DNA of 60,910 bases from IMG/VR virus record IMGVR_UViG_3300042557_001137, positions 1-60,910 of that record. One strand, 5' to 3'. Below, piece by piece: positions 10,935-45,198 of this stretch. Source of the stretch: a virus. Taxonomy: Duplodnaviria > Caudoviricetes. The notes under the pieces were generated by a model that had not been told where the DNA came from, did no database searches, and worked only from the letters and a program-made list of their open reading frames with translations. The first letter of the stretch is position 1. Every line of letters starts with the position of its first letter. The position numbers and the translations under genes were made by a program.

Positions 10935-10937
10935 CCG

Positions 10938-12374: not shown

Positions 12375-12377
12375 GGC

Positions 12378-15946: not shown

Positions 15947-16011
15947 TCTAGACCTTTACGAGGCGGCGCCTCTTCGAATGGTAGCAAATTGGGGGGTCAT
16001 GTGCATCAACA

Positions 16012-19900: not shown

Positions 19901-22900
19901 ACCCTCGCGCTTCATAGTCTTTTCTGCGGGCTTCAAGCAAGGCCGGCGTGCCACGGAATTCAAAAAGAGGCTTGTTGCCAAAGTATTCTTGCTCAGCCGC
20001 AGAAATCGATTCAGGACTGGTGTTAGACGCAGAGACCGTGCGCTTTATGCGGCGCACGGGCAGTTCTGTAACTTTTACTCGGCTTCCTTCTGTAGCCTCA
20101 AAAAGCTTTCCGGCCTTTGCTTGAGCTTGGTTAAGCGCCGTCGGATCGTCGACGGTTACATCCATCAAAGGATCGCCGTTGCTGTCCAAAATGGGTCTGC
20201 CGTCTTTACCAAGCAGTTGGACCCTGTGCATGGTCATTTCTTCGGTAAAGGCTTCGATTCCCTCGTCGCTTTGGAAGACCTGCGCGGAATAAACGTTGAG
20301 CTTGTATTCAGACTCAATCGTCTCTTCCGTCTGAAGAAGCTGACGAAGCGTGAACTTGGCGCCGCCGTTCTGCCACGCCTCGATCGTATCAAGCGCCCAG
20401 TCCGGCAACACTTGACCAAACATAGAATTAGTATTCGACGTCTGCATAAACTGCTTGGTCGGAATACGGGTGATCTCAAGACGCAGGTTTTTATCAGACG
20501 CCTTTATGAGGCGCTTTGCCTCGACCTCTGCTCTATCCAAAGCCTCCTGGTCATTGACCGTTACATCGTAAACAGACCCAAACGGGTCTTTGTCATTCTG
20601 GTCAATAACCCGCACGCGATACGGCGTGTTCCGCTTACCGTTGTTGAGCGTAGGACCGCGCTGCCCAGTAAGCATATGAACCTGCTTCCCGTCGCGGCTA
20701 CGGAGTTCTACTTGATACCCCTCAAGCATCAAATCGCCAATGATCTCCTGCAGCGCGTTCTTTGCTGCACCGCGCGGGTTGGTTACAAGCTCCCGCTTAC
20801 CGTTGACCGCCATTTCAGTCTTGGTAAGCGTCTTACCGCGCGCTTTCAACAAACCGCGACCGGAGTTGATCAGATCCCACAGCGCAATAGGAATGCGCTG
20901 GTTATCCGGAGTGACAACAAAAACCCTACGCAACGAAGCGTCCACTGCCGACTTACTTGGATTTCCGAGGACCCTATTGGCGCGAGCAATCGACCGAGCC
21001 AAGAACTCCCCCAAGCCGAGAAGAACAGATTCGCGCTGCTTGACCCCGTTGACAGTCCGTTCCAACTGGAACGGGATAAGCTCCGTGTCAGGAGACTCGT
21101 CCCGCACGATCTTGAACCCGTTGTCAGTATTCTCGATGCTTACAACAGAGTTAGGATTGGCCAGCTGCTCTTCAGCAGCAGTCTTAAGCAAGGCCTCGCT
21201 CATGCGGTTGAGCCGCCCGTCGCGCCAGTTCTGCGGCCCGAAAGCGCGCTCATAAAGCTCACGAACAGAGAACGTGTTCGGGTATACAGCTGTCGGATCC
21301 GCTTTTCTGCCTGTCCCGTTAAAACGTACGTCGACCCGCTGGCCTTCCCGCTCGGTAATCGACTCAACAAAAGCGTCAAGAGGGTCGCGGTTAGCGTTGT
21401 CGACGTTTAAATCATCAGCCTCTAGATTTGTGTCTAGATCTTCATTACTTTTCCGGTTTGCCGGGTCGAGCTCGTCAACGTTCGTTTCAACAATGTCGCC
21501 GTCTGTATTAACAAGGTGATGGGGCCAGTTTGCCGGGTTTAGGCTCTCGTCGTACGCTTCAGCGGCTCTAACATAAGCGTCCTCCTCGTCCGCGTCCATG
21601 TCACGCACTTCGAGCCGCTGGTCCTGTTGCACCCGGCGTCTGCGATCTTCAAGCGCTTTTTCGACCGTGGTCTGTCGAACGCTGCCGTTTTCCGGCATCA
21701 GCTTACGCGCGGCTTCAAACGCGGCGCTGACCCCGGCGTCGGTAGTGGCTTCTTCGGAGACGATGTTGCCAGCGGCGTCCAGCGCCTGCACAACGATATC
21801 CCCGGGCTCACTGGCTTGTTTGACCGCGCTGTAACCAAGCGCAATCTGCAAAGCCTGATCCGAAGCGCCGGCGGCGATCACTTCTCTTACAAGCTCTTTG
21901 TCGTCCGAGATGATCGTGCCACGACCTGGAACAAACGCAGCGTAAGAGATCTTGTCGGAGTCCGCAAAACGGATGTACTTGATCTCGTTCGGGCCGGCGT
22001 TATAGCGCGGCTCATTACCAGCGACCCAAACAGCTCGTTTGCTGCTGGTAGTGTCCTTCATGGCCCGGATCTGCGCCTCTATGTCGCGTTCGGATTCAGG
22101 CGAAGTCACGCCAGACAACAAGTCTCCAAACTGCTCGTTGTTGACCTGTTGATTTACTCTCTGCTCACGAGCCGCGCTGAGCATGGACTTGGCCTTGTCC
22201 ATTGCCCCGCGAGCGGCGTCAGGCACACGCACGGCGGCATCAAGCGTACTGCCAAACGCGCCGCCTGCAGCGCCAGGAGCTGCACCGCCAAAAAAACCTA
22301 GGAAAGCCGATTCCGCGAGCCGCATCTGGGCTTCTTCGGCGGTAAAAAGCGGGTCGAGATCAGCGCGATTGGCTACAGCGATGCTTTCTTGGGCAAGCTC
22401 AGTAGACCCTTCAATTGCTCCGCCGCGCAACCCGCCGCTGCCAACGCGCTTGGCGAAGTTGGCGAACAAGCTTCCTTCTTTAGCCGCGCGCACCGATGCC
22501 TGTTTGCCGATCAGCTTAAGCAACGCATATTCGCTGCCGGCGCCAATAGCCGCCTGCGGAACTCCGACCAGAGCAGCTCGGGTGGCCGACTCAGGGTCAA
22601 GGAGATAGCCGGAGTCCAAAGCTTCTGACAGATTGCTGCCAGACAGCGGAACGTACTCGGCGCCAAACGCGCCGGTCAATCCACCCACTTTGGCTGCTCG
22701 GCGCAGCGAGGCATACGCTTGCTCAGCAATCTCTTTCTCTACGTCGCTGGCTGTACCGCGCGCGGTGCGAGTGACAGAATCGCGGATGATCCGCTTGGCC
22801 ACTTCCCGATTGACCGAGTTAAGAACGCCTTGGCCTGCGACCGCCACAAGAGAGCCAGTACCGGCGCTAGCTATCGACAGCGCAGCAGACGGCAAGATCT

Positions 22901-23342
22901 GGCCGGTGCCGCGCGTCACTTGACTTATGAAGCCACTGAACGTCGGTTCGTCCAGGAACTCGCCGAAAGACTGCATGTTCTCCAAAGGCGCGGCAGCCGA
23001 TTCTTCGGCAAGTCGCGCATTTTTGATGTCAGCAGCAGCCTGTCCTTCGTTGCCTACAAGGGTGTTAAGCAGTCCCTTGAAATACAGCGCGTCGGCCCGT
23101 AGCCCTTCTATGCCAGACTGCACGCCGGCCTGGAACTCTTCGGCAAGCGTGCCAGGAACCGGCAGCGGCGCCCACGACTGGTCAGGGCTGTTCAGCAAAG
23201 CAGTCTGCGCCTCAAGGGCGCGGTTGCTCCTAGCAGTATTGCGGGCTACAACTTCAGCCTGCGCCTCCATAGGGCCGGGCTGCGGCGGCTCGCTATTGGC
23301 GGCAAAAAACCGCTGCATCAGATCATCGATTTGCGGATCCAT
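16962..23342 (-). CDS. very large internal virion (ejection) protein with zincin HExxH motif
   Basis: 2126 aa; G/A-rich N-terminal segment, LAHELGH..FEEWFSD zincin-like motif, hydrophobic C-terminus; position among ejection genes. Confidence 0.75.
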   Translation of the reverse strand: MDPQIDDLMQRFFAANSEPPQPGPMEAQAEVVARNTARSNRALEAQTALLNSPDQSWAPLPVPGTLAEEFQAGVQSGIEGLRADALYFKGLLNTLVGNEGQAAADIKNARLAEESAAAPLENMQSFGEFLDEPTFSGFISQVTRGTGQILPSAALSIASAGTGSLVAVAGQGVLNSVNREVAKRIIRDSVTRTARGTASDVEKEIAEQAYASLRRAAKVGGLTGAFGAEYVPLSGSNLSEALDSGYLLDPESATRAALVGVPQAAIGAGSEYALLKLIGKQASVRAAKEGSLFANFAKRVGSGGLRGGAIEGSTELAQESIAVANRADLDPLFTAEEAQMRLAESAFLGFFGGAAPGAAGGAFGSTLDAAVRVPDAARGAMDKAKSMLSAAREQRVNQQVNNEQFGDLLSGVTSPESERDIEAQIRAMKDTTSSKRAVWVAGNEPRYNAGPNEIKYIRFADSDKISYAAFVPGRGTIISDDKELVREVIAAGASDQALQIALGYSAVKQASEPGDIVVQALDAAGNIVSEEATTDAGVSAAFEAARKLMPENGSVRQTTVEKALEDRRRRVQQDQRLEVRDMDADEEDAYVRAAEAYDESLNPANWPHHLVNTDGDIVETNVDELDPANRKSNEDLDTNLEADDLNVDNANRDPLDAFVESITEREGQRVDVRFNGTGRKADPTAVYPNTFSVRELYERAFGPQNWRDGRLNRMSEALLKTAAEEQLANPNSVVSIENTDNGFKIVRDESPDTELIPFQLERTVNGVKQRESVLLGLGEFLARSIARANRVLGNPSKSAVDASLRRVFVVTPDNQRIPIALWDLINSGRGLLKARGKTLTKTEMAVNGKRELVTNPRGAAKNALQEIIGDLMLEGYQVELRSRDGKQVHMLTGQRGPTLNNGKRNTPYRVRVIDQNDKDPFGSVYDVTVNDQEALDRAEVEAKRLIKASDKNLRLEITRIPTKQFMQTSNTNSMFGQVLPDWALDTIEAWQNGGAKFTLRQLLQTEETIESEYKLNVYSAQVFQSDEGIEAFTEEMTMHRVQLLGKDGRPILDSNGDPLMDVTVDDPTALNQAQAKAGKLFEATEGSRVKVTELPVRRIKRTVSASNTSPESISAAEQEYFGNKPLFEFRGTPALLEARRKDYEARGYVTAYEKLPDTVDSEPEYSGVPPVPGDTLVEQMGNQNPLSSENTMDRSTVSGVTPRARDLPAPVDPVGIALSPQARPAVEPAGVAGMSESVVPMVRAVLQDLLTILKFKDPPKIYTLTELQAMSRAELEAAFPKGLAAVRLSMKRLAESRSLLGQHISGEFGKVIIYKPSNNPLRDTLVLAHELGHSLYKEERDRSLANKELRDRLMKAYRKSSTFASLSRKYGVEGGFEEWFSDQVALWASKRYRTRQSKSMTEKFFKDFVARLRGLYDALSRSFQKRFKQKVSGDFSTYMTDVLKSRREQAENNGLSYMEKSMVYKFDEMSVSAGSAQRAAVMAGKLNAFLKSPNMLDFTKVWRTADGVLRMFSPAIADMMYVQSQDPDGGGRQGFLGARADAFRKWKEEWGKIMPPTLDQATREQALLEARNTSIPTAQLQGKALEIRQYLERIHSEYIAPSNTNIRRLPNYFPTVFDLEAIANDPDGFRTVLLQADPSLDPAAVDAAIKAMKNIQEAIDDDVQPAVSPTDPSGQVEKALLLTKNILDKNKLGQFLLDPELSMLKYVSHVTRRVEWNRHTQGVDSNGKRSSRLLTELQKLSPRDRAEVENILNIYLGRQSEPLSPFWKKLNSWGQFLQFILLLPFATLSSLTDLAGPVIASKEFSSITEAFKEIASQIKNRDEAARFARDIGLTTSASMANVWVSDAEAEYMDPKARDLTDKFFTYIGLNWFTRFTREFSAGMAVRFIMKHADNQTGNPNSDRYLAELGLTQADVQNWVNGGRDMTSPAGQKMSNAVRRFVQSSVLSPNAAERPTWASDPHWALVWQLKGYFYSMGKVIVGGVKRELISKLQTGAAANNKAMMTAAAYSIALPIVALMPLAMLGLELREYAKYGLAALLPGVEADQRFFKTDRMDWPEYLGETFNRTGLHGAMAIITSANQSGEWGQSPLFSLLGPTAETLDVAMTNGWRVDKTVGDRLLPLYTLL

Positions 23343-25693
23343 TACTGCCCGGCTTCCAGTGCCTGATTAGCCATAACCGCCGCCTGCACAACTTCAAAAA
23401 GCGCTGGGTCAGCGTTACGGATCTGGGACGACGACACGAAACCCCCGGTTTTTGAACCGCTAGGCGAAAGGTAGTTGAACCCTTTAATGGTCTGTTGCCC
23501 GTTCCGCCCCGTTCCATAAACCGGCTGCAGCCGTGACAACACGTCGTCACCGATCGCAATTGAAGAATTGTCCTGAAAAATCCATTTATTTTCGTTGGAC
23601 ATAACTCCGATGACCGCGCCCACTTGCGAGTTGATTTCGGCAAGCATCGGCTGCAACTGGGCGGCCGGAATAGTGCCCTGCAGCGCCTTATAGGTCTGAA
23701 GCAACGGCACAGTATGAAACTGCAAAGCTGCAAGCGCGCGTTGACCAGTTGAGTTCGCAGTGTACCCAGTATCTTCTTCGTTTTTACCCATAGGCTTGCC
23801 TCCGACAAGTCCAAGCCTAAAGGTCTGATTAAAGTCACTGTTTACCTTGCGTATATGCCCACCAACGTTTTCGCCGCTCTCAATTCGACGCGCAAGCTCT
23901 CTCTGACGCGCTTCGCCTCTCTGCAATTCAAGAGTTGCTCGCTCCACGTCCAGCTTGCCCGCCGCAATATTGGTTCTTATCTGCTCTAGCTTGTATTTTG
24001 CAAGATCTTGGGAGCTCCAAGAAAGAGACCCGGTCTCGCCAACGTTAGCCATATACGCAAGGAGTGTTTGACGTTCCTGGGGATTGTCTGTCCAACTAGC
24101 CATGACTCCAAGAAGCGCGATCTGCTCGGCCTTACTCGGCAACTTGCTGATGTCAGCTGCCGTTCTCACTCCGGCTTCTTCTGCTCGACGCCGGACAACG
24201 CCCGCCTGCTGCGGGGTAAAAGTGATCTGCTGATTGCGGACCAGCTCTGCAGCCTGCGCCCCTGTCAGCGTGTCAAGCCTTGCCAAAACAGAGTCTTTGA
24301 ACTCCTTGAACGCTTGCGTTTGCATCTGGGGCGTGGCGAACCCGGCGCGCACATAGGCATCCCGGCGCGCATTAAGCGTCTGGATCTTAGCGTCAAACGT
24401 ACCTCGCCGTTCGTTAGGCGTACGCTCGCGCTCTCTCTGCAAAGCGTCAAGCTCTGAAGTGATCTTGTTGAACGCTCCAGAATTGATGTCACCGACCAGC
24501 TTTTGCCGGCTTTCGCGCAACTGATTCAGCTCTGTTTCAGCGGAAACTCGAGCATCTCCCGAAAGCTTATCTGCTTTTTTCTCGAGCTTAGAAATCTTCT
24601 CGTCTATGGCGGCTATAGGGTTGCTTGCAGCAAGCGATGGATCGCCCTTCTGCATTGGGTTTACATACCTACGGCTAGCAGCAACTTCCTTACTAACCAG
24701 CTCAGGCTCGATCAAATCGCTGGCGTTTCCGCGCCTAGAGCCGCTAAACAGCGCTCGCGGAATTTGAATCTTGGCGCCGCTTTTGTTCAGGGTTTCAGCA
24801 ATGCCGGTAAGCCGCTTGATGATTTCTTGAGGGTTATCCCCGGCTTCGGCTATTGCCGCCCGAGCGAGACGGGCGCCTTCCGGCCCGCTGATTTCCCTTG
24901 CCGCGCTGACGACGGTTCGCGTCAGCCTGTCGGTTTCGACACTGGTTGGACTAGCGGGCTGTCCACTAGACCGCTGATTGACACTGCCCGGAGCCATAGC
25001 ATCCGAAAAAACTTGGGCGCGAAACCATTGACTATCCGCGCCCAAGTTTGAGCCGGTAGGCAAAAGATCGGTCTTGGCATAAAGCTCCATATGCCGCGCG
25101 GCGTCGTCAAAAGAAAGCGCAAGCACGGGCGAGTTAGGATCGCTAGACCCATCGACGGTCGCAACTCCGGGGCGCCCGTCCTTATATTCGCCGCGAACAA
25201 CAATCTGTCCTTTAGCAAGCGCTTCGGGATCCAGCGTGGTAAACCGGAAGTCGTCCGATTCATACCGACCACTACTAATAGCACGTGTGTCGCGTTCGTG
25301 GTTGTAAAAGTCCACGAGGACACGTTCTGCGGCCCCGCGTTTGACAGGATCCGGATCTTTCAGCGCTGCAACAATGGCTTGGCCGCTGATCGGCCTGTCG
25401 CGGTTTTCAAAAGACACCGCGCCTAGCGACTTCATCATGCTCAGCATATTGTCGCCAGAACGCTTTTGGTCCGCAATTCTGCCGGTCTTTATAGCTTCGT
25501 CGCGCACTCGGATCGTTTCCGACCGCGCTAGTTCTAGGTTCTGCAGCTGTGACTTGTCCACCGCCAACGCGCTTTCGGTACGCTGGCGGTCAAGCTCCAT
25601 GCGGTCACGATCAAGGCGCATCTGCTGACGGCGTGCTGCACCATCCTGCACCGACTGAATGCCTTGGAGGATAGCGCTACCGAGGTCTGCCAT
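23342..25693 (-). CDS. internal virion (ejection) protein
   Basis: 783 aa, helical/coiled-coil, MADLGSAILQG start; gene order typical of podovirus core proteins. Confidence 0.65.
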   Translation of the reverse strand: MADLGSAILQGIQSVQDGAARRQQMRLDRDRMELDRQRTESALAVDKSQLQNLELARSETIRVRDEAIKTGRIADQKRSGDNMLSMMKSLGAVSFENRDRPISGQAIVAALKDPDPVKRGAAERVLVDFYNHERDTRAISSGRYESDDFRFTTLDPEALAKGQIVVRGEYKDGRPGVATVDGSSDPNSPVLALSFDDAARHMELYAKTDLLPTGSNLGADSQWFRAQVFSDAMAPGSVNQRSSGQPASPTSVETDRLTRTVVSAAREISGPEGARLARAAIAEAGDNPQEIIKRLTGIAETLNKSGAKIQIPRALFSGSRRGNASDLIEPELVSKEVAASRRYVNPMQKGDPSLAASNPIAAIDEKISKLEKKADKLSGDARVSAETELNQLRESRQKLVGDINSGAFNKITSELDALQRERERTPNERRGTFDAKIQTLNARRDAYVRAGFATPQMQTQAFKEFKDSVLARLDTLTGAQAAELVRNQQITFTPQQAGVVRRRAEEAGVRTAADISKLPSKAEQIALLGVMASWTDNPQERQTLLAYMANVGETGSLSWSSQDLAKYKLEQIRTNIAAGKLDVERATLELQRGEARQRELARRIESGENVGGHIRKVNSDFNQTFRLGLVGGKPMGKNEEDTGYTANSTGQRALAALQFHTVPLLQTYKALQGTIPAAQLQPMLAEINSQVGAVIGVMSNENKWIFQDNSSIAIGDDVLSRLQPVYGTGRNGQQTIKGFNYLSPSGSKTGGFVSSSQIRNADPALFEVVQAAVMANQALEAGQ

Positions 25694-30421: not shown

Positions 30422-30440
30422 GTTGGCATCTCCTTGAATT

Positions 30441-34340: not shown

Positions 34341-35990
34341 TTATGAACTCATCGCGGATTTTTGGCGGGGTCCGCGAGCGATGGAGAGAAGTTTGTCCCG
34401 CCAGGACGGTACGTGGACGACAGGAGGCTGGAACGTAGAAAACTCGGCCATCATCAAGCCGATCCACGAGATCGCGTCTACTTGGTCGTCGTGCATACCG
34501 TTAGGAAACCGCAGCAGCTCCGCGATCATAGGGCCGGTGAATGAGGCATCGCGCGGGAAGTATACCTTACCCTGCTGCATTCGGCCTTGGATTGCACGCG
34601 CCCGGGCTTCTTTGTCCCGGCGACCGGTTTTGAGGTCTTTGAAGTACGCCTCGTACAATCCGCGTTCCCGGACCCGTTTCTCCAGAAAGGGGCCAAGCGC
34701 CATTTCGATGTGGCTCTTCTCGATGCCGACGATCGACGGCTTCCATTGGACGTACAGGTCAAGGATGCGCTCGACCAGCTCGAAGCCGTCGAACCGCCCC
34801 CGCACCACGTCCATGACGTACATGTCGTCCTGCTGGTTGATCCCGACCACCACCCCTACGCTGTAGTCGTTGCGGTCGTTCTTGCCGATCGCCAAGTCCC
34901 ACGCACAGTAGTAGCGCATCTGCTTCTGGTCGACGTCGTCCGGGCCGTAGTACTTGACCATGCTGCGGGTGAAGTACTGGCCGTCGTCAGCTACCGGGTT
35001 CTGTTGGTAGAGGGCCGACCAGTCCCGGGGGCCGACCGCCTTTTCGATCCGGCGCAACGCCTCGACGTTGTACCGCTCCGGGTGCAGGGCGTCGCCCGAC
35101 TTGCGGAACTCCTCGTCCTCCTCGGCGATCGCCGGGTACCGCACCACCTCCCACTCATCACCCCCCTGCGAAGCCGCCTTCAGCAGCCGGCCGGCTAGGT
35201 CGTCGTCATGCCAGCGGGTGAGGATGACCAGCACCCCGCCGCCCGGCGCCAAGCGGGTGTACGCGGTCGAGGTGTACCAGTCCCAGGTCGCGTCCCGGTT
35301 GTTCTGGCTCTCGGCGTCTTCGCGGTTCTTGATGGGGTCGTCGATCACGAGGACGTGGGCGCCTTTGCCGGTGATACCACCGCCCACACCCGCCGCCACG
35401 AACCCACCCCCGGCCGTGGTCAGCCACGCCTCAGCGCTTTGGCTGTCCGGATCCAGACGCGTCTTGAATATCGTCTTATAGGAAGGCTCACGTAGTACCT
35501 GACGCACCTTACGGCTAAAACCCATCGCCAGAGAACCCGAGTACGAACAGCTGATGAACTCGTGCTCAGGGTTGCCGCCCAAGTGCCAAGCCGGGAACGC
35601 GACCGACGCCAAGGTCGACTTTCCGTGGCGCGGCGGTAGAAAGAGCATAAGCCGTGGCGACTTTTGGTCCACCACGTCGCGAGAAAACTGCTCAAGCCGT
35701 TTGCAGACATCTTTGTGCACCCACCCTGCGTTGTAGTCCGGGTTGAACTTCTCGACGAACGGCAACAGCCGCTTACGCGACAGGATACGCTCGGCGAGCT
35801 CCTTTTGAGCGCGCTCTTTGATGGATAGTTCCGGGGCTTCGGCCGGGGCCTGACCAGCGGCCTCCGGTAACCGCTCGGCGTCGTCGGCTTTGCAGTAGAC
35901 GCACAGGCCGTCCACTTCGGAGGAGTACAAGGTCGCCGGATGGCTGTTCTTGCACCGCTTGCACCGGCGCGTCGGCACGGCCTCGGTCAT
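34341..35990 (-). CDS. terL: terminase large subunit
   Basis: PPRHGKS Walker A, ITGKGA..LVIDDPIK Walker B, TRWHDDDL, WDLA and HDDQVDA nuclease motifs. Confidence 0.95.
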   Translation of the reverse strand: MTEAVPTRRCKRCKNSHPATLYSSEVDGLCVYCKADDAERLPEAAGQAPAEAPELSIKERAQKELAERILSRKRLLPFVEKFNPDYNAGWVHKDVCKRLEQFSRDVVDQKSPRLMLFLPPRHGKSTLASVAFPAWHLGGNPEHEFISCSYSGSLAMGFSRKVRQVLREPSYKTIFKTRLDPDSQSAEAWLTTAGGGFVAAGVGGGITGKGAHVLVIDDPIKNREDAESQNNRDATWDWYTSTAYTRLAPGGGVLVILTRWHDDDLAGRLLKAASQGGDEWEVVRYPAIAEEDEEFRKSGDALHPERYNVEALRRIEKAVGPRDWSALYQQNPVADDGQYFTRSMVKYYGPDDVDQKQMRYYCAWDLAIGKNDRNDYSVGVVVGINQQDDMYVMDVVRGRFDGFELVERILDLYVQWKPSIVGIEKSHIEMALGPFLEKRVRERGLYEAYFKDLKTGRRDKEARARAIQGRMQQGKVYFPRDASFTGPMIAELLRFPNGMHDDQVDAISWIGLMMAEFSTFQPPVVHVPSWRDKLLSIARGPRQKSAMSS

Positions 35991-37331: not shown

Positions 37332-37486
37332 GGTCTCCCGGCCGCCTCCACGATGACCCCCTTCCCGGAACCCACCGCCCCCTAACGAAGATTAGCCATT
37401 TCAGCATTTGGAACCTTGTCTGGCAGTAACCCTCTTCGCACGAAGAACTCAAGCTCACACGGGGTCAGCTATCGGACAGCTCGCTC

Positions 37487-37507
37487 GCGCTTCGCGCTCG
37501 CGGTCAG
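37487..37507 (+). promoter_or_regulatory. hairpin-CGGTCAG element 1 (putative early promoter)
   Basis: GCGC-TTC-GCGC, then TCG, then CGGTCAG. Confidence 0.55.
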
Positions 37508-37547
37508 CGTCAGTTGTGTATTCCGTCCACCACTCAAGGAGTTAGTC

Positions 37548-37637
37548 ATGGACCGTCGCGATATCCCTGTTGTCATCGCTGCTGGCGCGTTTGTCGTCAG
37601 CCTCTTGTGGGCCACTTACTACCTGTGGCTCGTTTGA
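37548..37637 (+). CDS. small membrane peptide (29 aa)
   Basis: AAGGAG RBS; MDRRDIPVVIAAGAFVVSLLWATYYLWLV. Confidence 0.65.
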   Translation: MDRRDIPVVIAAGAFVVSLLWATYYLWLV

Positions 37638-37652
37638 TAGCTCGCTGCGCTC

Positions 37653-37675
37653 CGCGCTTCGCGCGTCGCGGTCAG
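37653..37675 (+). promoter_or_regulatory. hairpin-CGGTCAG element 2
   Basis: CGCGC-TTC-GCGCG, then TCG, then CGGTCAG. Confidence 0.55.
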
Positions 37676-37720
37676 TAGTGTTTGTGTAGTTTGTGCAACC
37701 AGTCCTAGGAGGACACTTCG

Positions 37721-37888
37721 ATGCAGATCAACGATACCACTGAGTCCACTGTCGCCACCAAGACGGAGGAACTCAAGGCTCAGGCCAAGGAAGTTGGGGC
37801 CGACCTCATGCAGGCCGCCAAGCGTGAGGCCCAAGAGCGCCCGCTGTCGACCGCGCTGCTCGCGATCTTGCTGCTCACGAGCACCTGA
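37721..37888 (+). CDS. small tail-anchored membrane protein (55 aa)
   Basis: AGGAGG RBS; MQINDTTES..AQERPLSTALLAILLLTST; not in the ORF track. Confidence 0.7.
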   Translation: MQINDTTESTVATKTEELKAQAKEVGADLMQAAKREAQERPLSTALLAILLLTST

Positions 37889-37893
37889 CCCCC

Positions 37894-37920
37894 AGCCCTG
37901 AGCATGGCTCAAAACTGCTC
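37894..37920 (+). repeat. intergenic pseudoknot repeat copy 1
   Basis: AGCCCTGAGCATGGCTCAAAACTGCTC, 26/27 identical to 38272-38298. Confidence 0.8.
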
Positions 37921-37955
37921 ATCTCTTCTACAACCAGCCCCAGGAGGGCACTTCG

Positions 37956-38264
37956 ATGAACAAAATCTACCAGCCGATCACCGTCGCCCCCGGCCGCCTC
38001 GTGGCCTTCGTCAAGGCCCGCCGCGACCCCAAGGAGTTCAGAGACCCCCACTACCAGGGTGTGATGGCGCTGCCCGATGGCACGCGTTTGCAGGTCTCGA
38101 TATGGATCGACACCACGCGCGCCGGCAAGCCCATCATCAACGGCTCTGTCCGCCCTGAGCCCGTCCGCACGGCGCATCACCTCGACTCGGCCGAACTCGC
38201 CAAGTCCGAGGACATCCCGCAGCACCCGGGCGCCAAGGTCGACCCCAACTTCGACCTGTTCTGA
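37956..38264 (+). CDS. small OB-fold ssDNA-binding-like protein (DUF736-like)
   Basis: P.YQG..DG...QVSIW....AGK..INGSV pattern with acidic/aromatic C-terminus (DPNFDLF). Confidence 0.6.
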   Translation: MNKIYQPITVAPGRLVAFVKARRDPKEFRDPHYQGVMALPDGTRLQVSIWIDTTRAGKPIINGSVRPEPVRTAHHLDSAELAKSEDIPQHPGAKVDPNFDLF

Positions 38265-38271
38265 TCCTCCT

Positions 38272-38298
38272 AGCCCTGAGCACGGCTCAAAACTGCTC
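38272..38298 (+). repeat. intergenic pseudoknot repeat copy 2
   Basis: AGCCCTGAGCACGGCTCAAAACTGCTC. Confidence 0.8.
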
Positions 38299-38329
38299 CC
38301 TTCTCTCAACCAGTCCAGGAGAACTGACC

Positions 38330-38485
38330 ATGTCCAGCAAGATCCGCACCTCGACCATCTTCGCGATGGCCGCCAACATGACCTTCATCGCTTCGTTCTT
38401 CGCCGGCGAGATGGCGCTGCCGATGCTCTTCATCACCGCCTACGCCGGTCTGGCCGGGCTCACCTTCGCCACCCTCGGCGACTGA
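38330..38485 (+). CDS. small two-TM membrane protein (51 aa)
   Basis: AGGAG RBS; hydrophobic; not in the ORF track. Confidence 0.65.
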   Translation: MSSKIRTSTIFAMAANMTFIASFFAGEMALPMLFITAYAGLAGLTFATLGD

Positions 38486-38495
38486 GGTACGCACC

Positions 38496-38837
38496 GTGAT
38501 CTACCAACCTGCTCCGCCGAACTTCCTCGAAGAAGCACGCGCGCTGATCGAGGCCCACAACATCAACAACGCCTACGAGTTCATCGAATACGCGATGAAC
38601 GACCGTCTCCACGGAGACGAGTACTTCGCCGCTGTCGCCGGCTTGGTGACCTGCGAAATCACCCCATTCTGTGTCCGCGTCGGTGACTCCCTCATGGACC
38701 AGGACGAATGGCTGGAGGGCGCCCTCAGCGGCATCAAGGGCGATGACCTCACCGTGTGGGTGGCCAAGTTCCTCGACCGCCATCACGAGTTCCTCGTCGA
38801 TGAGCTCGGCGACGACATTGACGTCGTCCCGGTCTGA
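38496..38837 (+). CDS. acidic hypothetical protein
   Basis: GAGG RBS, GTG start, coding-like codon bias. Confidence 0.7.
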   Translation: MIYQPAPPNFLEEARALIEAHNINNAYEFIEYAMNDRLHGDEYFAAVAGLVTCEITPFCVRVGDSLMDQDEWLEGALSGIKGDDLTVWVAKFLDRHHEFLVDELGDDIDVVPV

Positions 38838-38845
38838 TCCCTCAG

Positions 38846-38888
38846 CTGCAGGGTCAAGGCCCCCAAGCCTTGGCCCTGCAGTTCTTTT
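38846..38888 (+). terminator. intrinsic terminator
   Basis: 15-bp stem CTGCAGGGTCAAGGC/GCCTTGGCCCTGCAG followed by TTCTTTT. Confidence 0.75.
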
Positions 38889-38988
38889 CAGCGTAAGAGG
38901 GGGACCACGTGCCGGGGGGAACGAGCAACGTGCCCCGAGCCCCCATCCACGATCGGTGTGCCGTGCTCATCGGCCCACGCCCCTTGGA

Positions 38989-39050
38989 CCGTGGCCACCG
39001 GTGCTTGCGCCGTGGTCCGTGGCCACCGGTGCTTGCGCCGTGGTCCGTGG
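38989..39050. repeat. 28-bp tandem repeat built from heptamers
   Basis: CCGTGGCCACCGGTGCTTGCGCCGTGGT twice, plus CCGTGG. Confidence 0.9.
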
Positions 39051-39067
39051 ACATCGGCCGACGTGGA

Positions 39068-39352
39068 TGTGTACCGGCTGTGTACCGCCGGTACCAGTTC
39101 GTGGTACACAGAAGTGGTACACATTAACCCCTTGCCACGTAAGGGTTTTTCAGCACTTTCACAAAGTGTGTACCGCGAAAGGGGGGGGTCTCAAACATGA
39201 CGAAATACCCTATATGTGTTTTCTAACACATAGTCGTTTTTCAATTTACCCCCTAAAATGGTGGTACACATGGTACCAAATTGATTCTTAAGGAAAAATG
39301 GTGGTACACAAGGTGGTACACAAGCCACTGTTCCTGGTACACATGGTACACA
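39068..39352. repeat. iteron-like cluster, candidate replication origin
   Basis: Seven direct TGGTACACA and three inverted TGTGTACC copies around an AT-rich tract in a non-coding gap. Confidence 0.65.
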
Positions 39353-39424
39353 CCACTGTATTTCCATACAGACATTTGTATTTTCGCAACAGATTCTGTT
39401 GCTTTAATACAACAAAGGCGTGTC

Positions 39425-39446
39425 CCCCTTCGGGGTCCACGGTCAG
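39425..39446 (+). promoter_or_regulatory. hairpin-CGGTCAG element 3
   Basis: CCCC-TTC-GGGG, then TCCA, then CGGTCAG, about 40 nt before gene 39488. Confidence 0.55.
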
Positions 39447-39487
39447 AGGGTTATTTTGTCGTTTATCCCTCATAGGAGTGTGAATCG

Positions 39488-39730
39488 ATGTATCAGACCT
39501 ATGACGAGTTCTTCCGGCAAGTCGAACAACGGATCCTGGCCACGAACCCCGTGGCTATGGACGAGCCCGCTGTACTCAACCGCATGCTGGAGATCCTCTA
39601 CCCGCCCAATTCCTACCACCACTTCATGCTGCACGGCGCCGAGTTCGACGACGTGGTCGAGGCTGCAGTCAACGACTGCACCGCAAACCTCTCCGTCAAC
39701 ACCATCGCCGGCCTGCTCAGGAGCCACTGA
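39488..39730 (+). CDS. hypothetical early protein
   Basis: AGGAG RBS. Confidence 0.7.
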   Translation: MYQTYDEFFRQVEQRILATNPVAMDEPAVLNRMLEILYPPNSYHHFMLHGAEFDDVVEAAVNDCTANLSVNTIAGLLRSH

Positions 39731-39732
39731 CC

Positions 39733-39981
39733 ATGAGCCACGGACACCCGGCCGAGGTTCGTCGGATCTTCTACGTCCTTGGACCTTTCGGCTACCGGCG
39801 CGCGTTCCGCTCCATCCGCAAAGCCCTCAAGTGCGGCGAGTCGACCGTCTCCATCTCCCAGAAGCTCAGACGCAACCCGTTCGAAATCAACCTGCAGAAC
39901 CGAGACCTTGTCGCATTCGTCCGCCACGTGGCCACCCGCCACTACCGGGCTGAACTCCGTCGCTACCACTCATACCGTTGA
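39733..39981 (+). CDS. basic hypothetical protein
   Basis: AGGAG RBS; packed in operon. Confidence 0.6.
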   Translation: MSHGHPAEVRRIFYVLGPFGYRRAFRSIRKALKCGESTVSISQKLRRNPFEINLQNRDLVAFVRHVATRHYRAELRRYHSYR

Positions 39982-40008
39982 CCTTCACCTAGCAAAGGAC
40001 AAACCACC

Positions 40009-40242
40009 ATGAACCAGAACTTACTGACCATTGCCCGCATCGCTTTCGCCGACGCCCAGATCGAGTGGGCCAAGGCCCTCAAGAGCTTCGACTACGACGC
40101 CATGTACGCCGCCGCTTGCGCGGTCTGCATCGCCGAGCGCGATGTTTGCCGCCTCCAGTTGGAGGAGGACTTCTTCCTCGCGACCCGGCCGTGGCCTTCT
40201 TCCACTCAGGCCGTCGCCTGGCAACCCGCTCAGGTGTCGTGA
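40009..40242 (+). CDS. hypothetical protein
   Basis: AAGGA RBS. Confidence 0.65.
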   Translation: MNQNLLTIARIAFADAQIEWAKALKSFDYDAMYAAACAVCIAERDVCRLQLEEDFFLATRPWPSSTQAVAWQPAQVS

Positions 40243-40442
40243 TGAGAGCGCTCCACATCGCCGAGTGGCGCGAGTACTCGCAAGAGTGCGCGCACCAAGC
40301 CCGCGAGGCCCGTTACGCAGCCGAGAACGTCTGCCCCAGTTGCGGGGGCACAGGCGATCACGGCGTAGAACCTGACACCGGTTGCCTGTTCGTCTGCTAC
40401 AGCTGCGCCGGCACCGGCAAGTACTTTTTCTCTCTCACCTGA
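40242..40442 (+). CDS. DnaJ-type zinc-finger small protein
   Basis: CPSCGGTG and CYSCAGTG motifs; TGATG coupling to the upstream gene. Confidence 0.7.
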   Translation: MRALHIAEWREYSQECAHQAREARYAAENVCPSCGGTGDHGVEPDTGCLFVCYSCAGTGKYFFSLT

Positions 40443-40464
40443 CCATAGCCAAGGAGAACCATCC

Positions 40465-40707
40465 ATGTCTGAAATCAACAAGTCCAAGAAGCGTCAGTCG
40501 ACCGTCAACGGTCCGTATTACTCGGCCCAGTTCGGCAACACCTTCAACAACAAGGTGCGCGCTCTGGCCAAGAAGCTCGCTGAGCTGACCGCCGCTTTCA
40601 AGCGCGCGATGGAGAAGGGCCAGTCCAAGAAGGCCGACAACATCCAGGAGCAGATCAAGCTCGTGGAGGCCGCCCGCAAGTCCATCCCCCTCAAGCGGGG
40701 TGGCTGA
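40465..40707 (+). CDS. basic coiled-coil protein
   Basis: AAGGAG RBS; strong codon bias. Confidence 0.75.
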   Translation: MSEINKSKKRQSTVNGPYYSAQFGNTFNNKVRALAKKLAELTAAFKRAMEKGQSKKADNIQEQIKLVEAARKSIPLKRGG

Positions 40708-40898
40708 TGAAGATCACCATCCGCGATCTGTCGGGCGACACGCCGACCGAGACCTGCGAGTTGCCGGACAACTTCGAGCAGGTGCTGATGACCCTCCTTC
40801 GCGGGGCCCACTCTGTGGGCTTCCGTCGAGGGGTGGTCGTCGGCGCCGTCTCGACCTTGATCGGTGCGGTCGCGTTCTACATGTTCTCGGGAGCCTGA
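40707..40898 (+). CDS. small membrane-anchored protein
   Basis: TGATG coupling; C-terminal TM segment. Confidence 0.65.
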   Translation: MKITIRDLSGDTPTETCELPDNFEQVLMTLLRGAHSVGFRRGVVVGAVSTLIGAVAFYMFSGA

Positions 40899-40899
40899 C

Positions 40900-41094
40900 A
40901 TGACCAAGAAATGGGTGCCAGAAGCAGCTGTTGCTCACCGTGAGTCTCTCATGATTCTGGTCAGAGTAAATGAAGCTATCCATCACTATGGCCTGGAAGG
41001 ACGCGCTTACGAGTACGACATGAAAAACGATTGCGTCGTGGTTTGGGCCACAGACACAATCACTCCTTACGTCTACGTCCGGATCTACCCCTGA
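40900..41094 (+). CDS. hypothetical protein
   Basis: GGGAG RBS before ATG 40900. Confidence 0.6.
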   Translation: MTKKWVPEAAVAHRESLMILVRVNEAIHHYGLEGRAYEYDMKNDCVVVWATDTITPYVYVRIYP

Positions 41095-41105
41095 CCACTT
41101 CTATG

Positions 41106-41138
41106 CCCCCATTGAGAGTTACTCAATGGGGGTTTTTT
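41106..41138 (+). terminator. intrinsic terminator
   Basis: CCCCCATTGAG/CTCAATGGGGG stem followed by T6. Confidence 0.85.
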
Positions 41139-41152
41139 CTTGCGAGGTCACA

Positions 41153-41350
41153 ATGAACGAGCGTTCCGACATCTCGACCGAAACCCTTATCGACAGACTT
41201 GGCCACGCTGCCTGGCACTACGCAGAGATGCGTGCTGAGCAAGCGCGTGCCAACTTGGTTGCGAAGCAGGCTGAACAGAAGTACATCGACGCGTACAACA
41301 CAGTCTTGTCTCGCATCCAGAACCTCGAAGAGTACGTGAAGAACACATGA
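41153..41350 (+). CDS. coiled-coil hypothetical protein (similar to 42235..42447)
   Basis: GAGG RBS; ATG 41153. Confidence 0.65.
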   Translation: MNERSDISTETLIDRLGHAAWHYAEMRAEQARANLVAKQAEQKYIDAYNTVLSRIQNLEEYVKNT

Positions 41351-41547
41351 CCACGAACCACGAATACCACATCACGCTCAAGTGGTACGTCGAAGACGTC
41401 CACAGGGTGCGCCCAGATCTCGATGATCGGCAAGCACGAGAAGTGCTCAGGTACATCCGCGACAACCACAGCGCAGATGTGGGTGTGAATTGGTACGTGA
41501 TCGAATGTGCAGCTAGTGATTTGTTTCCAACAAAGGACGACGAATAA
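41347..41547 (+). CDS. conserved phage hypothetical protein
   Basis: W.VEDV..RPDL.D.QAREVL..H.A..GVNW..IE motif. Confidence 0.75.
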   Translation: MTTNHEYHITLKWYVEDVHRVRPDLDDRQAREVLRYIRDNHSADVGVNWYVIECAASDLFPTKDDE

Positions 41548-41726
41548 TGGCCATTGAACCCCGGATCATCCACATAGACTTAGACATCACCACTATCGAC
41601 GAAGATACTTACGACACCGTGCTTCGAGAATTCATGCTCGTCATCGACCGTATGGGGCTTGATGGCGACAAGTTCTCATACGATAAATGGCGGATCACTT
41701 GCGTAGCAGAGGAAAGCACTCCATGA
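41547..41726 (+). CDS. acidic hypothetical protein (59 aa)
   Basis: TAATG coupling; MAIEPRIIHIDLD..; not in the ORF track. Confidence 0.6.
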   Translation: MAIEPRIIHIDLDITTIDEDTYDTVLREFMLVIDRMGLDGDKFSYDKWRITCVAEESTP

Positions 41727-41986
41727 CTGTCTCCGTCACATCATCCATCTGGGTAGTGAAAGCTACGGAACAAGTTTCAGGCGACTACGACGTCGTGTTC
41801 CTCATGTCTTTCAATACCCGCAACGGTGCAAAAGCCGTGTACGACTACGGCAGGCGCAAAGTACCCAAACTGTATTGGCAGTACGACGCTATGCCTTTTC
41901 TCGACAACAACGACTACGACTACGCCATATACAACATCGACGAATTGAGCGAAGGGTTCTACAACGACAAGATCGAACCCGTATGA
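41723..41986 (+). CDS. hypothetical protein
   Basis: ATGA overlap; GAGGA RBS. Confidence 0.6.
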   Translation: MTVSVTSSIWVVKATEQVSGDYDVVFLMSFNTRNGAKAVYDYGRRKVPKLYWQYDAMPFLDNNDYDYAIYNIDELSEGFYNDKIEPV

Positions 41987-42011
41987 ATCAGAACTCACAG
42001 ACACAAAAGCC

Positions 42012-42221
42012 ATGAACAGACATACTGAGATCAAGCCTGGAGCATATCGCGCCCTGTTCCTTGACGCACTTGCCAAGTATCGCGAAACAGCAGACCCTGC
42101 TGAGATCCCTGTCATCGATCATTACGTACGAACGCTTCAAAACCCCGACTACAAATTCGGAAAGATGACATACCACGGCCAAAAGATTTATGGCCCTGGC
42201 GAATTGTTCTTTCGTTCTTAA
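42012..42221 (+). CDS. hypothetical protein
   Basis: Co-oriented ORF in operon. Confidence 0.55.
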   Translation: MNRHTEIKPGAYRALFLDALAKYRETADPAEIPVIDHYVRTLQNPDYKFGKMTYHGQKIYGPGELFFRS

Positions 42222-42234
42222 AGGAGAACTGACC

Positions 42235-42447
42235 ATGCCCCCCGATTTCTCGAAACTGACCACTACCGAACTGATGGACAAGCTGATCAACCAGGCTTAC
42301 GCAGTCGGCCGACTCAAAGCCGAAGCTGCTCACGCCAGGACTATGGCAGACCGGGCTCTATCTGAGTACGAAACGCTCCACACTGAAGCCCAGACTCGTC
42401 TGCACAACATGGCGGAGACGTTGGCCATCACATCGGGTAAACCCTGA
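42235..42447 (+). CDS. coiled-coil hypothetical protein
   Basis: AAGGAG RBS; ATG 42235. Confidence 0.7.
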   Translation: MPPDFSKLTTTELMDKLINQAYAVGRLKAEAAHARTMADRALSEYETLHTEAQTRLHNMAETLAITSGKP

Positions 42448-42650
42448 TGGCCACTCGACAGTACATGGAGCGTTACATCGTCAGGTCCTACACCGAAGAA
42501 CTCATGAAGAGCAAAGCTGCACTGAAGTATTTCATTTACGAAGTGCTTCATTACGGGTACAGCGCTTCTCTTCCTACCAACGGTCCTTTGGACGCAATGG
42601 ACGATTACGAAGTGAAACAAGTCTATGACGATTACAGGGGAAGCAAATGA
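42447..42650 (+). CDS. hypothetical protein
   Basis: TGATG coupling. Confidence 0.6.
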   Translation: MATRQYMERYIVRSYTEELMKSKAALKYFIYEVLHYGYSASLPTNGPLDAMDDYEVKQVYDDYRGSK

Positions 42651-42856
42651 ACAAAGACAAGCTTGAAAAAGTTGATTCTATGTTTTCCATATTTGCATCG
42701 ATCGTGATCATCGGAGCTGTTGTACTGGCGTTCAGCGCCAGCTACCGTGAGTCATTGCGCGCTAAAGGCGAAGCCAAGTTCTGCAATGAGCGCAATGGAG
42801 TGTTGTTGCGTAGCCACGAGGGCACCGTATGCGCCAAGCTGGAGATCGTCGACTGA
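42647..42856 (+). CDS. small membrane protein
   Basis: One TM segment then a C..RNG....C motif. Confidence 0.6.
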   Translation: MNKDKLEKVDSMFSIFASIVIIGAVVLAFSASYRESLRAKGEAKFCNERNGVLLRSHEGTVCAKLEIVD

Positions 42857-43056
42857 CGACTTTTGTCGATCAAACCCTTGAACACTTGTACGAACAGTTA
42901 GCCGAGTCCCATCAGATATGGGAACAAGCCAACGAACAACTGAACTACGACGGGTCCATACCATTTGTCCAAGCAGAGAAGAAAGCCTGGTCCCGTGTAG
43001 TCAGGATTCAACGGTCTATCCTTCGTTTTGAACAAGCCACAAAGGACAACAAATGA
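42829..43056 (+). CDS. hypothetical protein (start uncertain)
   Basis: Fills an operon gap; ATGA overlap with the next gene. Confidence 0.45.
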   Translation: MRQAGDRRLTTFVDQTLEHLYEQLAESHQIWEQANEQLNYDGSIPFVQAEKKAWSRVVRIQRSILRFEQATKDNK

Positions 43057-43241
43057 AGCCCAACAGCTACAAAGTCTTGCTCCATGCTGTCGAGATCGGT
43101 GTTGCTCTTGGCGTAAGCCGAGCTTTCAAACACGACAAAAACCCGTCTTTTGACCAGCTTACTGAGACCGTTGAACAAGCGATTGTCGACCAGATCTGCG
43201 AATGGTTCGAATTCGAACCGGATTTCAATTCACACAACTGA
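43053..43241 (+). CDS. conserved phage hypothetical protein
   Basis: MKP..Y..L..AVE.GV..G..RA.KH...P..ICEWFEF. Confidence 0.7.
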   Translation: MKPNSYKVLLHAVEIGVALGVSRAFKHDKNPSFDQLTETVEQAIVDQICEWFEFEPDFNSHN

Positions 43242-43257
43242 TCAGGAACCACTCATC

Positions 43258-43533
43258 ATGTCCACCCTCAACACTCCTATTTCCCTTTCTGATTACGACA
43301 CCCGTCTCCGATCGCACGACTGGTACTACCAGTATTCCGACAACCACGGCGTGTGGCGCCGGGGCGACGGCGAACGAACTGCTCTGGTCAACCGCAGCAA
43401 GGAATCTCCGGAGCACAAAGAGCTGTACGACGCCTGGGTCACGTACTTCTTTTCGGGCGACAATTTCGACAGCCCCAAGTTCACCCAAGAAGAGCGTGAC
43501 GCTGTGCGTCGTCGCTTGGGTGTCATCGAGTAA
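43258..43533 (+). CDS. HDWYY-motif phage protein
   Basis: L..HDWYYQYSD...WRRG motif; AGGA RBS. Confidence 0.75.
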   Translation: MSTLNTPISLSDYDTRLRSHDWYYQYSDNHGVWRRGDGERTALVNRSKESPEHKELYDAWVTYFFSGDNFDSPKFTQEERDAVRRRLGVIE

Positions 43534-43544
43534 GGCCGTGTTTT

Positions 43545-43859
43545 ATGGCTACTGATCCCGTTCCTATATCCATCTCTGACTACAACACCGCTTTGGAAAA
43601 CTTCGATTGGTACTACGACTTTTCAGAAAACCCTGATGAGCGCGACCAAAGCCGCCAACGCGCGGACGAGCTTTTTCGGATACGTGATCAAAGCGGTTTG
43701 CACCATTATCTTTACGGAATTTGGGCCATGTTCATGGCACACCATCTTTGTGAAGAAGACCTTCAAGAAGAGATCACTTGGGTGATGTCTGTTAGTCCTA
43801 GTACTTCACAGTTTGATATACATGAAGCTAAACAGATGCTGGAGGGCCTCTCAGAATGA
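43545..43859 (+). CDS. paralogue of 43258..43533
   Basis: PISISDY..L..FDWYYDFS aligns with the preceding gene. Confidence 0.7.
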   Translation: MATDPVPISISDYNTALENFDWYYDFSENPDERDQSRQRADELFRIRDQSGLHHYLYGIWAMFMAHHLCEEDLQEEITWVMSVSPSTSQFDIHEAKQMLEGLSE

Positions 43860-44125
43860 ACACCGCCAAACTCGAAGCAGCTACAAGCAACAGCGTCGCT
43901 AACGCACGTTTGCTGCTTCGCTCTATCCAAAACCAAGTTGATTCTGACTGTTACATCGGTTCCGGTCCGCTTTCTTCCGCACAGCTTTTCAACGCTGCAG
44001 CCGACGCACACGAGCTTTTCTCTTTGTTGCTCCACGCAGCCAGTGGACGCGCTGTGCTAGAACAACGCGCATCCTTTCAGGATGCGCGGTCAGAAAATGT
44101 TGGTGAAGTCGGTAGCAAGGAGTGA
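43856..44125 (+). CDS. hypothetical protein
   Basis: GGAGG RBS, ATGA overlap. Confidence 0.55.
   Translation: MNTAKLEAATSNSVANARLLLRSIQNQVDSDCYIGSGPLSSAQLFNAAADAHELFSLLLHAASGRAVLEQRASFQDARSENVGEVGSKE
44066..44093 (+). promoter_or_regulatory. hairpin-CGGTCAG element 4
   Basis: CGCGCATCCT-TTC-AGGATGCGCG, overlapping CGGTCAG at 44087-44093. Confidence 0.55.
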
Positions 44126-45148: not shown

Positions 45149-45165
45149 TTTCAGCAACCACAACA

Positions 45166-45198
45166 GCCCGCTTGGTGTAACAGCCAAGCGGGTTTTTT
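45166..45198 (+). terminator. intrinsic terminator
   Basis: GCCCGCTTGG/CCAAGCGGGT stem followed by a T-run. Confidence 0.85.

Follow-up and report, generated by a model that had tools for sequence, protein, structure and literature searches.

What do four small hairpins, each standing just ahead of an early gene, do in a phage that appears to lack a recognisable RNA polymerase? The question is raised by a 60,910-base stretch of DNA, called the window here, which is the IMG/VR virus record IMGVR_UViG_3300042557_001137 of an uncultured podovirus (rated 100% complete). A preliminary description of the window had read the hairpins, together with the CGGTCAG that follows each, as structure-based early promoters resembling those of coliphage N4. 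We re-found all four elements on the plus strand, with ATGs 36-45 nt further on, and examined their anatomy, copy number, orientation, covariation and placement before early genes. On this analysis the chances that the elements are N4-type structure-dependent early promoters stand at about even. The dependence on structure and the resemblance to N4 hold, but the large virion proteins as the reader and an N4-type capsid, which the preliminary description had attached to the same proposal, are not supported.

The elements share one plan, which reads in order as an outer stem CGC, TC, a free 5-bp inner stem, a TTC loop, the complement of the inner stem, TC, GCG and GTCAG. Element 2 has precisely this architecture (inner stem CGCGC/GCGCG, 37653-37665), element 3 has an inner stem CCCC/GGGG (39425-39435), and element 4 has pairs in place of the internal loop (stem-loop span 44066-44088). 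Inner stems are thus 4-5 bp, or 10 bp continuous in element 4, in keeping with the 5-7 bp stem and 3-nt loop of N4-type promoters. The loop is TTC in all four elements and in 31 of the 32 copies that we aligned, the sole exception being a register shift of element 1. CGGTCAG starts at 37501, 37669, 39440 and 44087, and its first G, the putative start site, lies 10, 11, 11 and 11 nt from the loop centre in elements 1 to 4, as had been described. The heptamer had been presented as an invariant motif; its sequence is the same in all four, but the CG is the 3' end of the outer stem (CGC...GCG), and what follows the stem is an invariant GTCAG at the hairpin foot (GGTCAG is kept in 32 of 32 aligned copies). 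A further box lies about 10 nt past GTCAG, with family consensus TATTGTGTAT and a nearly invariant TG; in elements 2-4 it occupies 37682-37689, 39451-39460 and 44098-44106. The ATGs at 37548, 37721, 39488 and 44130 follow the heptamer by 40, 45, 41 and 36 nt, and the distance from element to ATG is about 36-52 nt across the window and its relatives (39-52 nt when counted from the first letter of the heptamer).

Neither ingredient is unusual by itself: CGGTCAG occurs 17 times versus 10.8 expected, a count reached in 5 of 100 shuffles, and TTC-loop hairpins with a stem of at least 4 bp occur 13 times on the two strands of the window. The composite of a hairpin, a TTC loop and GGTCAG within 6 nt, in contrast, is found 4 times versus 0.028 expected (mean of 500 dinucleotide-preserving shuffles; maximum 1, with at least one in 14 shuffles), which bears out the joint pattern singled out in the preliminary description. 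A covariance model run with filters off over the 60.9 kb returned only elements 1-4 (36.9-53.3 bits, these four having belonged to its training set), all on the plus strand and inside 37.4-44.1 kb, and the next match scored 9.3 bits. An unbiased pattern that fixed the flanks and loop, left both N5 arms free and did not presuppose pairing gave 35 unique matches in viral contigs, of which 27 were fully complementary, all 27 with family flanks, while the remaining 8 lay in unrelated contexts. In metagenome contigs, among the matches listed (120 stretches), 16 of 108 unique matches were fully paired, all 16 with family flanks, and the others showed a chance-like spread (0, 1, 2, 3 and 4 pairs in 12, 38, 22, 14 and 6 matches); no new stems appeared among the matches listed.

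Relatives keep the structure, and the covariation claimed for the four copies extends to them. Our alignment comprises 32 distinct copies, taken from the window and its uncultured relatives with a large terminase (TerL) 85-87% identical. Of the 33 copies found, L034:1310-1366, which lies within coding sequence on the opposite strand, was left out as a chance match. Pairing held in 98.8% of 256 alignment cells, compared with 26-50% in slid-partner controls. Two-sided changes occurred in 6 of the 8 pairs and one-sided changes in none, so there are zero G-U pairs in the 256 cells. The copies carry at least 12 different inner stems, and the outer stem covaries as well, from CGC/GCG to CGT/ACG and CGTG/CACG. 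Orthologous first elements with near-identical flanks (loci L144, L210, L142 and others) have stems such as ATCGC, GACAC and GACGC, indicating that the feature kept is the pairing and that the sequence is free. Stem bases that are free if paired, within fixed flanks, are characteristic of N4-type promoters, and the alignment shows that the structure of the elements is under selection. In these orthologous first elements both inner-stem arms have turned over jointly and much faster than the flanks; template-switch repair inside a DNA hairpin or exchange between copies would produce such a pattern.

Copy number and orientation are also constant. Five relatives carry 2-4 copies each on a single strand, 2-3 of them strong copies within about 3 kb, and the single outlier is a weak, hairpin-less match; multiple copies in one orientation on the early strand, again as in N4, are a property of the window and all five. 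Outside this group the CGGTCAG-type model gave one weak match (15.4 bits) in 25 more distant loci plus Aeromonas phage phiA008, and this near-absence confines the type to the clade with TerL identity of at least 85%. Other hairpins stand in comparable places further afield. Phage phiA008 has one unrelated hairpin preceding its first gene. In clades whose TerL identity falls to 71-73%, the early strand has hairpins with other stems and a TAC loop; CGGTTG- or TGTCA-like sequence and a TTATGTAT / GTGTGTAT box come after them, and an ATG lies 55-65 nt downstream. The cultured Pseudomonas phage KPP25 (L132, NC_024123) has hairpins at about 4022, 4323 and 6846: 9-bp hairpins with sense-strand GGA loops 40-47 nt before the first two early ATGs, and a further 5-bp hairpin with a TCC loop past an iteron-rich gap, a layout like that of the window with mixed loop orientation.

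The template strand would form the better structure. It reads CTGAC-CGC-GA-stem-GAA-stem-GA-GCG, and its loop, GAA, belongs to the GNA triloops; the closing pair is C:G in 22 of 32 copies, and by sequence the loop should be capable of a sheared G:A pair, as in N4 P1. Its internal loop would become a tandem G.A pair in which each GA is preceded by a pyrimidine and followed by a purine, and this Y-GA-R context explains why column 12 is a purine in 29 of 32 copies. The sense strand would form the poorer structure: its triloop is TTC (UUC in RNA), and it has two T.C mismatches. Triloops of the d(GCGAAGC)-type GNA class and sheared G.A pairs are unusually stable in DNA. Read from the alignment, the total lack of wobble pairs is easier to reconcile with DNA than with RNA. 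The TAC loops of the distant clades are GTA on the template, again GNA, and an Rfam search gave no match at the elements.

We infer from position and from likeness to N4 that transcription starts at the elements. Under the promoter reading, DNA entry and negative supercoiling would cause the inverted repeats to extrude, and the template (minus) strand would fold into a stable hairpin with its GAA triloop, usually C:G-closed, and with the internal loop replaced by tandem G.A. An enzyme that makes RNA would bind this hairpin and the fixed foot sequence. Synthesis would begin at the two Gs of CGGTCAG, which are 10-12 nt away from the loop centre, and would yield a 5' leader, some 45 nt long, leading up to the ribosome-binding site. 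Each early unit would end at an intrinsic terminator, and the TATTGTGTAT box about 10 nt on might be part of the initiation region or a shut-off operator. Terminator-like sites do lie at the unit ends (Table 1), and the elements thus head terminator-closed units. The elements themselves do not look like intrinsic terminators, as GTCAG and no T run follows the hairpin in all four on the plus strand.

Table 1. Positions of the hairpin elements, early units and other features in the window and in related loci
Feature	Position	Strand	Remarks
Element 1	37482..37507	+	Outer stem CGC/GCG, TC/TC internal loop; covariance model 45.8 bits
Element 1, inner parts	GCGC/GCGC 37487-37497; loop TTC 37491-37493; GTCAG 37503-37507	+	
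Element 1, downstream box	37514..37521	+	TTGTGTAT
Element 2	37648..37675	+	CGC-TC-CGCGC-TTC-GCGCG-TC-GCG-GTCAG; 53.3 bits
Element 3	39419..39446	+	Outer stem CGTG/CACG, loop (C)TTC, then GTCAG; 36.9 bits
Element 4	44066..44093	+	Continuous 10-bp stem CGCGCATCCT/AGGATGCGCG, TTC loop, GTCAG; 45.5 bits, z -7.2
First early ORF, 29 aa	37548..37637	+	Hydrophobic; after element 1
Early ORF, 55 aa	37721..37888	+	After element 2; orthologue of the gene behind relatives' first element
Early ORF, 80 aa	39488..39730	+	After element 3
Early ORF, 55 aa	44130..44297	+	MQQL start; after element 4; orthologue behind relatives' last element
Intrinsic-terminator-like hairpin and T run	39129..39145	+	Closes the unit of elements 1 and 2
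Similar terminator-like sites	41105-41133; 45165-45194		Close the units of elements 3 and 4
Iteron-rich, partly AT-rich gap	39068..39352		TGGTACACA / TGTGTACC repeats, just upstream of element 3
Structural genes	~37.3 kb down to 1.9 kb	-	
Large terminase (TerL)	34341-35990	-	
Portal	32195-34339	-	
Capsid protein	29279-30463	-	
783-aa virion protein	23342..25693	-	Almost wholly helical elongated rod (predicted), pLDDT 75; gp15/gp51 position
2126-aa virion protein	16962..23342	-	HExxH zincin motif (residues 1329-1333), gp16-like helical C-terminal domain (predicted)
TAC-loop hairpins of distant clades	L039:586-641; L068 ~6907; L069 ~641	-	

What might read such promoters? Judged by sequence and modelled folds, the phage appears to have no recognisable RNA polymerase, as the preliminary description had claimed. 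Motif B of T7-like polymerases was found in no ORF of at least 150 aa in the whole genome except the DNA polymerase, and a six-frame genome search with PF00940, the N4 mini-vRNAP domain, PF00623 and PF00562 gave no match. As controls, PF00623 and PF00562 were positive in 14 of 14 genomes, and PF00940 detected N4 gp16 but gp50 only weakly (E 0.007), so a gp50-like enzyme could escape the PF00940 test. A cognate T7-like virion RNA polymerase, the mark of N4-type systems, was thus not among what these searches found.

The preliminary description had named the 2126-aa and 783-aa virion proteins as places where a polymerase might hide. The 2126-aa protein has conserved blocks at residues 60-890 and 1200-2126 flanking a variable middle that is covered by 2-4 of its 66 homologues; two similar segments of about 45 residues in this middle (residues ~900-1200) form an internal duplication. 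The homologues range from 1330 to 2315 aa, HExxH is invariant in the family, and a polymerase domain occurs in 0 of 66 and a transglycosylase domain in 2 of 66. The family profile searched against the PDB gave weak metalloprotease matches only and no polymerase. A DMDAD in the linker is not kept in 45 homologues, there is no DxDxD among the invariant columns, and the N-terminal block has no invariant acidic pair outside its hydrophobic first 350 residues. The folded C-terminal 887 residues (pLDDT 72.5) are predicted to form a zincin-like part and an all-helical domain, with no DxDxD double-psi beta-barrel of the two-barrel type seen in crAss-like gp66. Best matches of this fold are T7-type gp16 chains (8vb2_A, Z 8.7; 9jyy_I, Z 8.2; 9vvp_O, Z 7.2; next 4.4), although a Z below 13 for helical proteins may reflect merely a common arrangement. 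No polymerase fold was seen in the predicted structure of the 783-aa protein, Foldseek gave no match at E <=0.001 for either model, and the ESM Atlas returned only unnamed viral clusters and LPD22 at 29% share. By the models the 2126-aa protein is probably a T7 gp16-like ejection or core protein with a zincin domain, and it was a polymerase by no test run; the idea of a hidden polymerase finds no support in these folds or in DMDAD, which is not conserved.

Two candidate likenesses of the 2126-aa protein were set aside. A single-sequence match to human RPC1 (E 0.0045) lay outside the catalytic motifs and was gone with the family profile, so we rejected it as spurious. N4 gp50 likewise has an HExxH part and a large helical C-terminal domain (PMC13434306). 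We do not claim that the 2126-aa protein is a gp50 that has lost its polymerase domain, a notion founded on a like order of parts, sequence similarity being absent; hhalign gave a probability of 0.2 for its family profile against gp50, and 0.15 for the 783-aa family against N4 gp51. The likeness to T7 gp15 and gp16 lies in gene order, size, helical nature, gp16-type fold matches and the transglycosylase domain of two homologues, and the difference from gp16 lies in the extra zincin HExxH domain and the long conserved N-terminal block. Further virion proteins of 1076, 478, 340 and 322 aa gave no family matches and by eye look like spike, tail, scaffold and fibre proteins, respectively.

With no recognisable phage RNA polymerase, the reader would be either an enzyme of the host or a phage protein that the virion carries and that our searches did not recognise. 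A broader claim, which we find doubtful but worth stating, is that this family of uncultured aquatic podoviruses uses template-strand hairpin promoters with neither a T7-like nor a two-barrel virion polymerase, the reader being the host enzyme at extruded hairpins, perhaps aided by ejection proteins, or a new kind of polymerase. If true, hairpin-promoter recognition would exist independently of the N4 enzyme.

Several observations weigh against the promoter reading. To our knowledge, every known hairpin-promoter system has its own phage polymerase; here none was found by T7-like motif B, a conserved DxDxD or profile searches, and the large virion proteins fold, in the predictions, as helical ejection proteins. 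The stretch between hairpin and start is unpaired in N4, whereas the putative start here lies at the foot of the covarying outer stem, which would have to melt. A weak copy common to two relatives has an outer-stem G.T, which is A.C on the template, along with a T.C mismatch (G.A on the template), and the KPP25 loops, GGA twice and TCC once on the sense strand, mean that the template-strand rule is not general. The relatives also have about 250 nt of non-coding DNA upstream of their first element (L003-L124) that could hold a conventional promoter. In this stretch TGGAACCTTGT occurs twice as a direct repeat with a spacing of about 25 nt, alongside a palindrome rich in A/T and blocks of G runs and C runs. 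A regulator may bind there, the genome may end there, or the stretch may belong to packaging or to an origin; the window retains one GGAACCTTGT (37410-37420).

Some of these points would suit a role in RNA, with transcription starting upstream and the sense stem-loop and GGUCAG of the leader acting as a protein-binding or stabilising signal, for instance a nut/put-type antitermination site, a translational operator or a shield from decay that depends on the 5' end. Since no phage RNA polymerase was found, the host polymerase would have to transcribe these units, and the upstream non-coding DNA of the relatives could carry its promoter; the elements keep a fixed leader position relative to the ATG, KPP25 has its sense-strand GGA-loop hairpins in the same position, and an early 125-aa ORF (40065-40442, plus strand) has a weak zinc-ribbon match to the Q-like antiterminator phrog_6060 (E 0.0039), with zinc-ribbon Pfam families below cut-offs. 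We nevertheless judge an RNA-level role, the main alternative, unlikely: the stems lack both G-U pairs and one-sided changes, and the sense strand carries the weak version of the structure (UUC, U.C/U.C) while the opposite strand carries GAA and tandem G.A. Moreover, upstream of the hairpin nothing is common to the first, second and third elements, a sigma-70-like site is upstream of none of the four, Rfam gave no match, and the loop does not belong to the GNRA-like boxB class. That the DNA hairpin serves something other than the start of mRNA, as a priming or origin signal read by primase or as a cruciform for a regulator or nuclease, appears less probable still. The template CTGAC at the hairpin foot is present in 32 of 32 copies, CTG is the recognition triplet of E. 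coli DnaG and hairpin-dependent priming is known at the origin of phage G4; element 3 adjoins the iteron-rich gap, the downstream box is iteron-like, and the 847-aa primase-helicase of the phage has an origin-binding-like part. At the G4 origin, however, the primer is laid into the hairpin, whereas synthesis from CTG would here run away from it. All copies lie on the coding strand 36-52 nt before a ribosome-binding site and ATG, and only at the heads of early units, a placement that a priming or nicking signal does not need, and no HUH nuclease or relaxase turned up in general Pfam/PHROGs library scans.

Host sigma factors, which the preliminary description had itself raised as a competing explanation, would require the downstream box (TAtTGT in relatives) to be a -10 hexamer and the hairpin an added insulator or supercoil sensor. 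Columns 39-44 of the alignment are TAnnnT-like, with T in 22, A in 19, T in 21, T in 25, G in 17 and T in 31 of 32 copies, and a host polymerase would be needed anyway. This conventional promoter is nonetheless very improbable: each of the four boxes of the window lacks either the A at position 2 or the T at position 1, the -35 would land in the variable stem, the invariant GGTCAG would sit in a spacer that sigma-70 does not read, and the covariation would go unexplained. A consensus scan of 36.5-48 kb for hexamers 16-18 bp apart placed a sigma-70-like site at none of the elements (4 in the region versus 5.9 in shuffles). Readings of the flanks by eye as extracytoplasmic function (ECF) sigma, sigma-54 or extended -10 promoters were rejected, as the spacing did not fit.

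The surroundings of the elements are those of a podovirus with divergent gene blocks. On the minus strand the structural genes include, besides those in Table 1, tail spike and fibre genes, and on the plus strand, from 37.5 kb, small early genes are followed by replication genes for a family A DNA polymerase, the 847-aa primase-helicase, an exonuclease and a helicase. The early proteins had no informative family matches in Pfam or PHROGs. The iteron core of the gap before element 3 resembles the TTGTGTAT box downstream of the elements; given the origin-binding-like part of the primase-helicase, one protein might bind both iterons and boxes. The closest named phages are distant (phiA008, TerL 49%; the KPP25 group of Pseudomonas phages, TerL 42% and primase 30%). 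The N4-type capsid claimed in the preliminary description is not borne out, as BLASTP found no similarity between the major capsid protein and N4 gp56 (E 0.039), and the portal is only weakly similar to that of N4 (24% identity, E 1e-5). The phage is not a schitovirus. The tail spike and its neighbours (10000-16000 of the window) have 62-65% G+C versus about 55% genome-wide, which suggests a swapped-in receptor-binding module.

If the elements are start sites, as the promoter reading has it, another enzyme can use extruded DNA hairpins as promoters; this would change the search for early phage promoters in metagenomes and make available a small promoter, gated by structure, on which to experiment. 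Should they instead work at the RNA level, they would represent a conserved leader signal of a new sort. In either case the same DNA design, a template GAA triloop on a short free stem and a G at a distance of eleven bases, stands before the early genes of an unrelated phage family, one that is common in lake and other metagenomes and for which, in the window genome, none of our searches recognised a polymerase.

Among known systems, the lambda nut site shares with the elements a short hairpin with a 5-bp stem beside a fixed sequence (CGCTC recalls boxA), few copies and a place in the leaders of early units. It differs in that its loop is a GNRA-like pentaloop and not a 3-nt UUC loop; G-U pairs are absent from the elements, and no upstream promoter was seen. 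No N-like protein was identified in the Pfam and PHROGs scans, which covered the early ORFs only. The GCGAAGC-type mini-hairpins resemble the template strand in its C-GAA-G (22 of 32 copies) and in GA/GA with a 5' pyrimidine and 3' purine, and differ in being a property of DNA rather than a biological system, their formation here being a prediction. The early and middle hairpin promoters of the Pseudomonas phage LUZ7 were mapped by ONT-cappable-seq. Its early promoters have a stem of at least 4 bp, a 3-nt loop and a downstream G (PMC9163698), as the elements do; that G is the start and lies 13-14 nt from the loop centre, and, in contrast to what we found here, LUZ7 carries a virion RNA polymerase and RNAPII.

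The closest comparison is with N4 itself, and in the literature searched, hairpin promoters appear only with N4-like phages, read by a dedicated injected polymerase. N4 early promoters are conserved from -17 to +1 (PMC4496689). Their stem is 5-7 bp long, their 3-nt loop, centred at -11, has a sheared G:A, the stem bases are free while paired, and gyrase and host single-stranded DNA-binding protein (SSB) are required, the active form being the template-strand hairpin. The present elements differ in that their hairpin continues, beyond a conserved internal loop, into an outer stem that covaries, in the GTCAG foot and the TATTGTGTAT box, which have no N4 counterpart, and in that neither a gp50-like nor a T7-like polymerase was found. 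The likeness in design is nonetheless extensive. The N4 promoters P1-P3, read by the injected virion RNA polymerase gp50, are short inverted repeats with a 3-nt loop, as here; they too come as several copies in the same orientation that head early genes, with fixed sequence around a stem of free sequence. In the N4 genome (NC_008720), P2 has a 7-bp stem and a TCC loop, P1 is GTTGC-TTC-GCAAC before gp1, and in both the distance from the loop centre to a G is 11 nt. The resemblance to N4 promoters that the preliminary description had proposed therefore holds most closely for P1, which shares with the elements its 5-bp stem, its sense TTC loop (template GAA), its C:G closing pair and the 11-nt spacing of its G.

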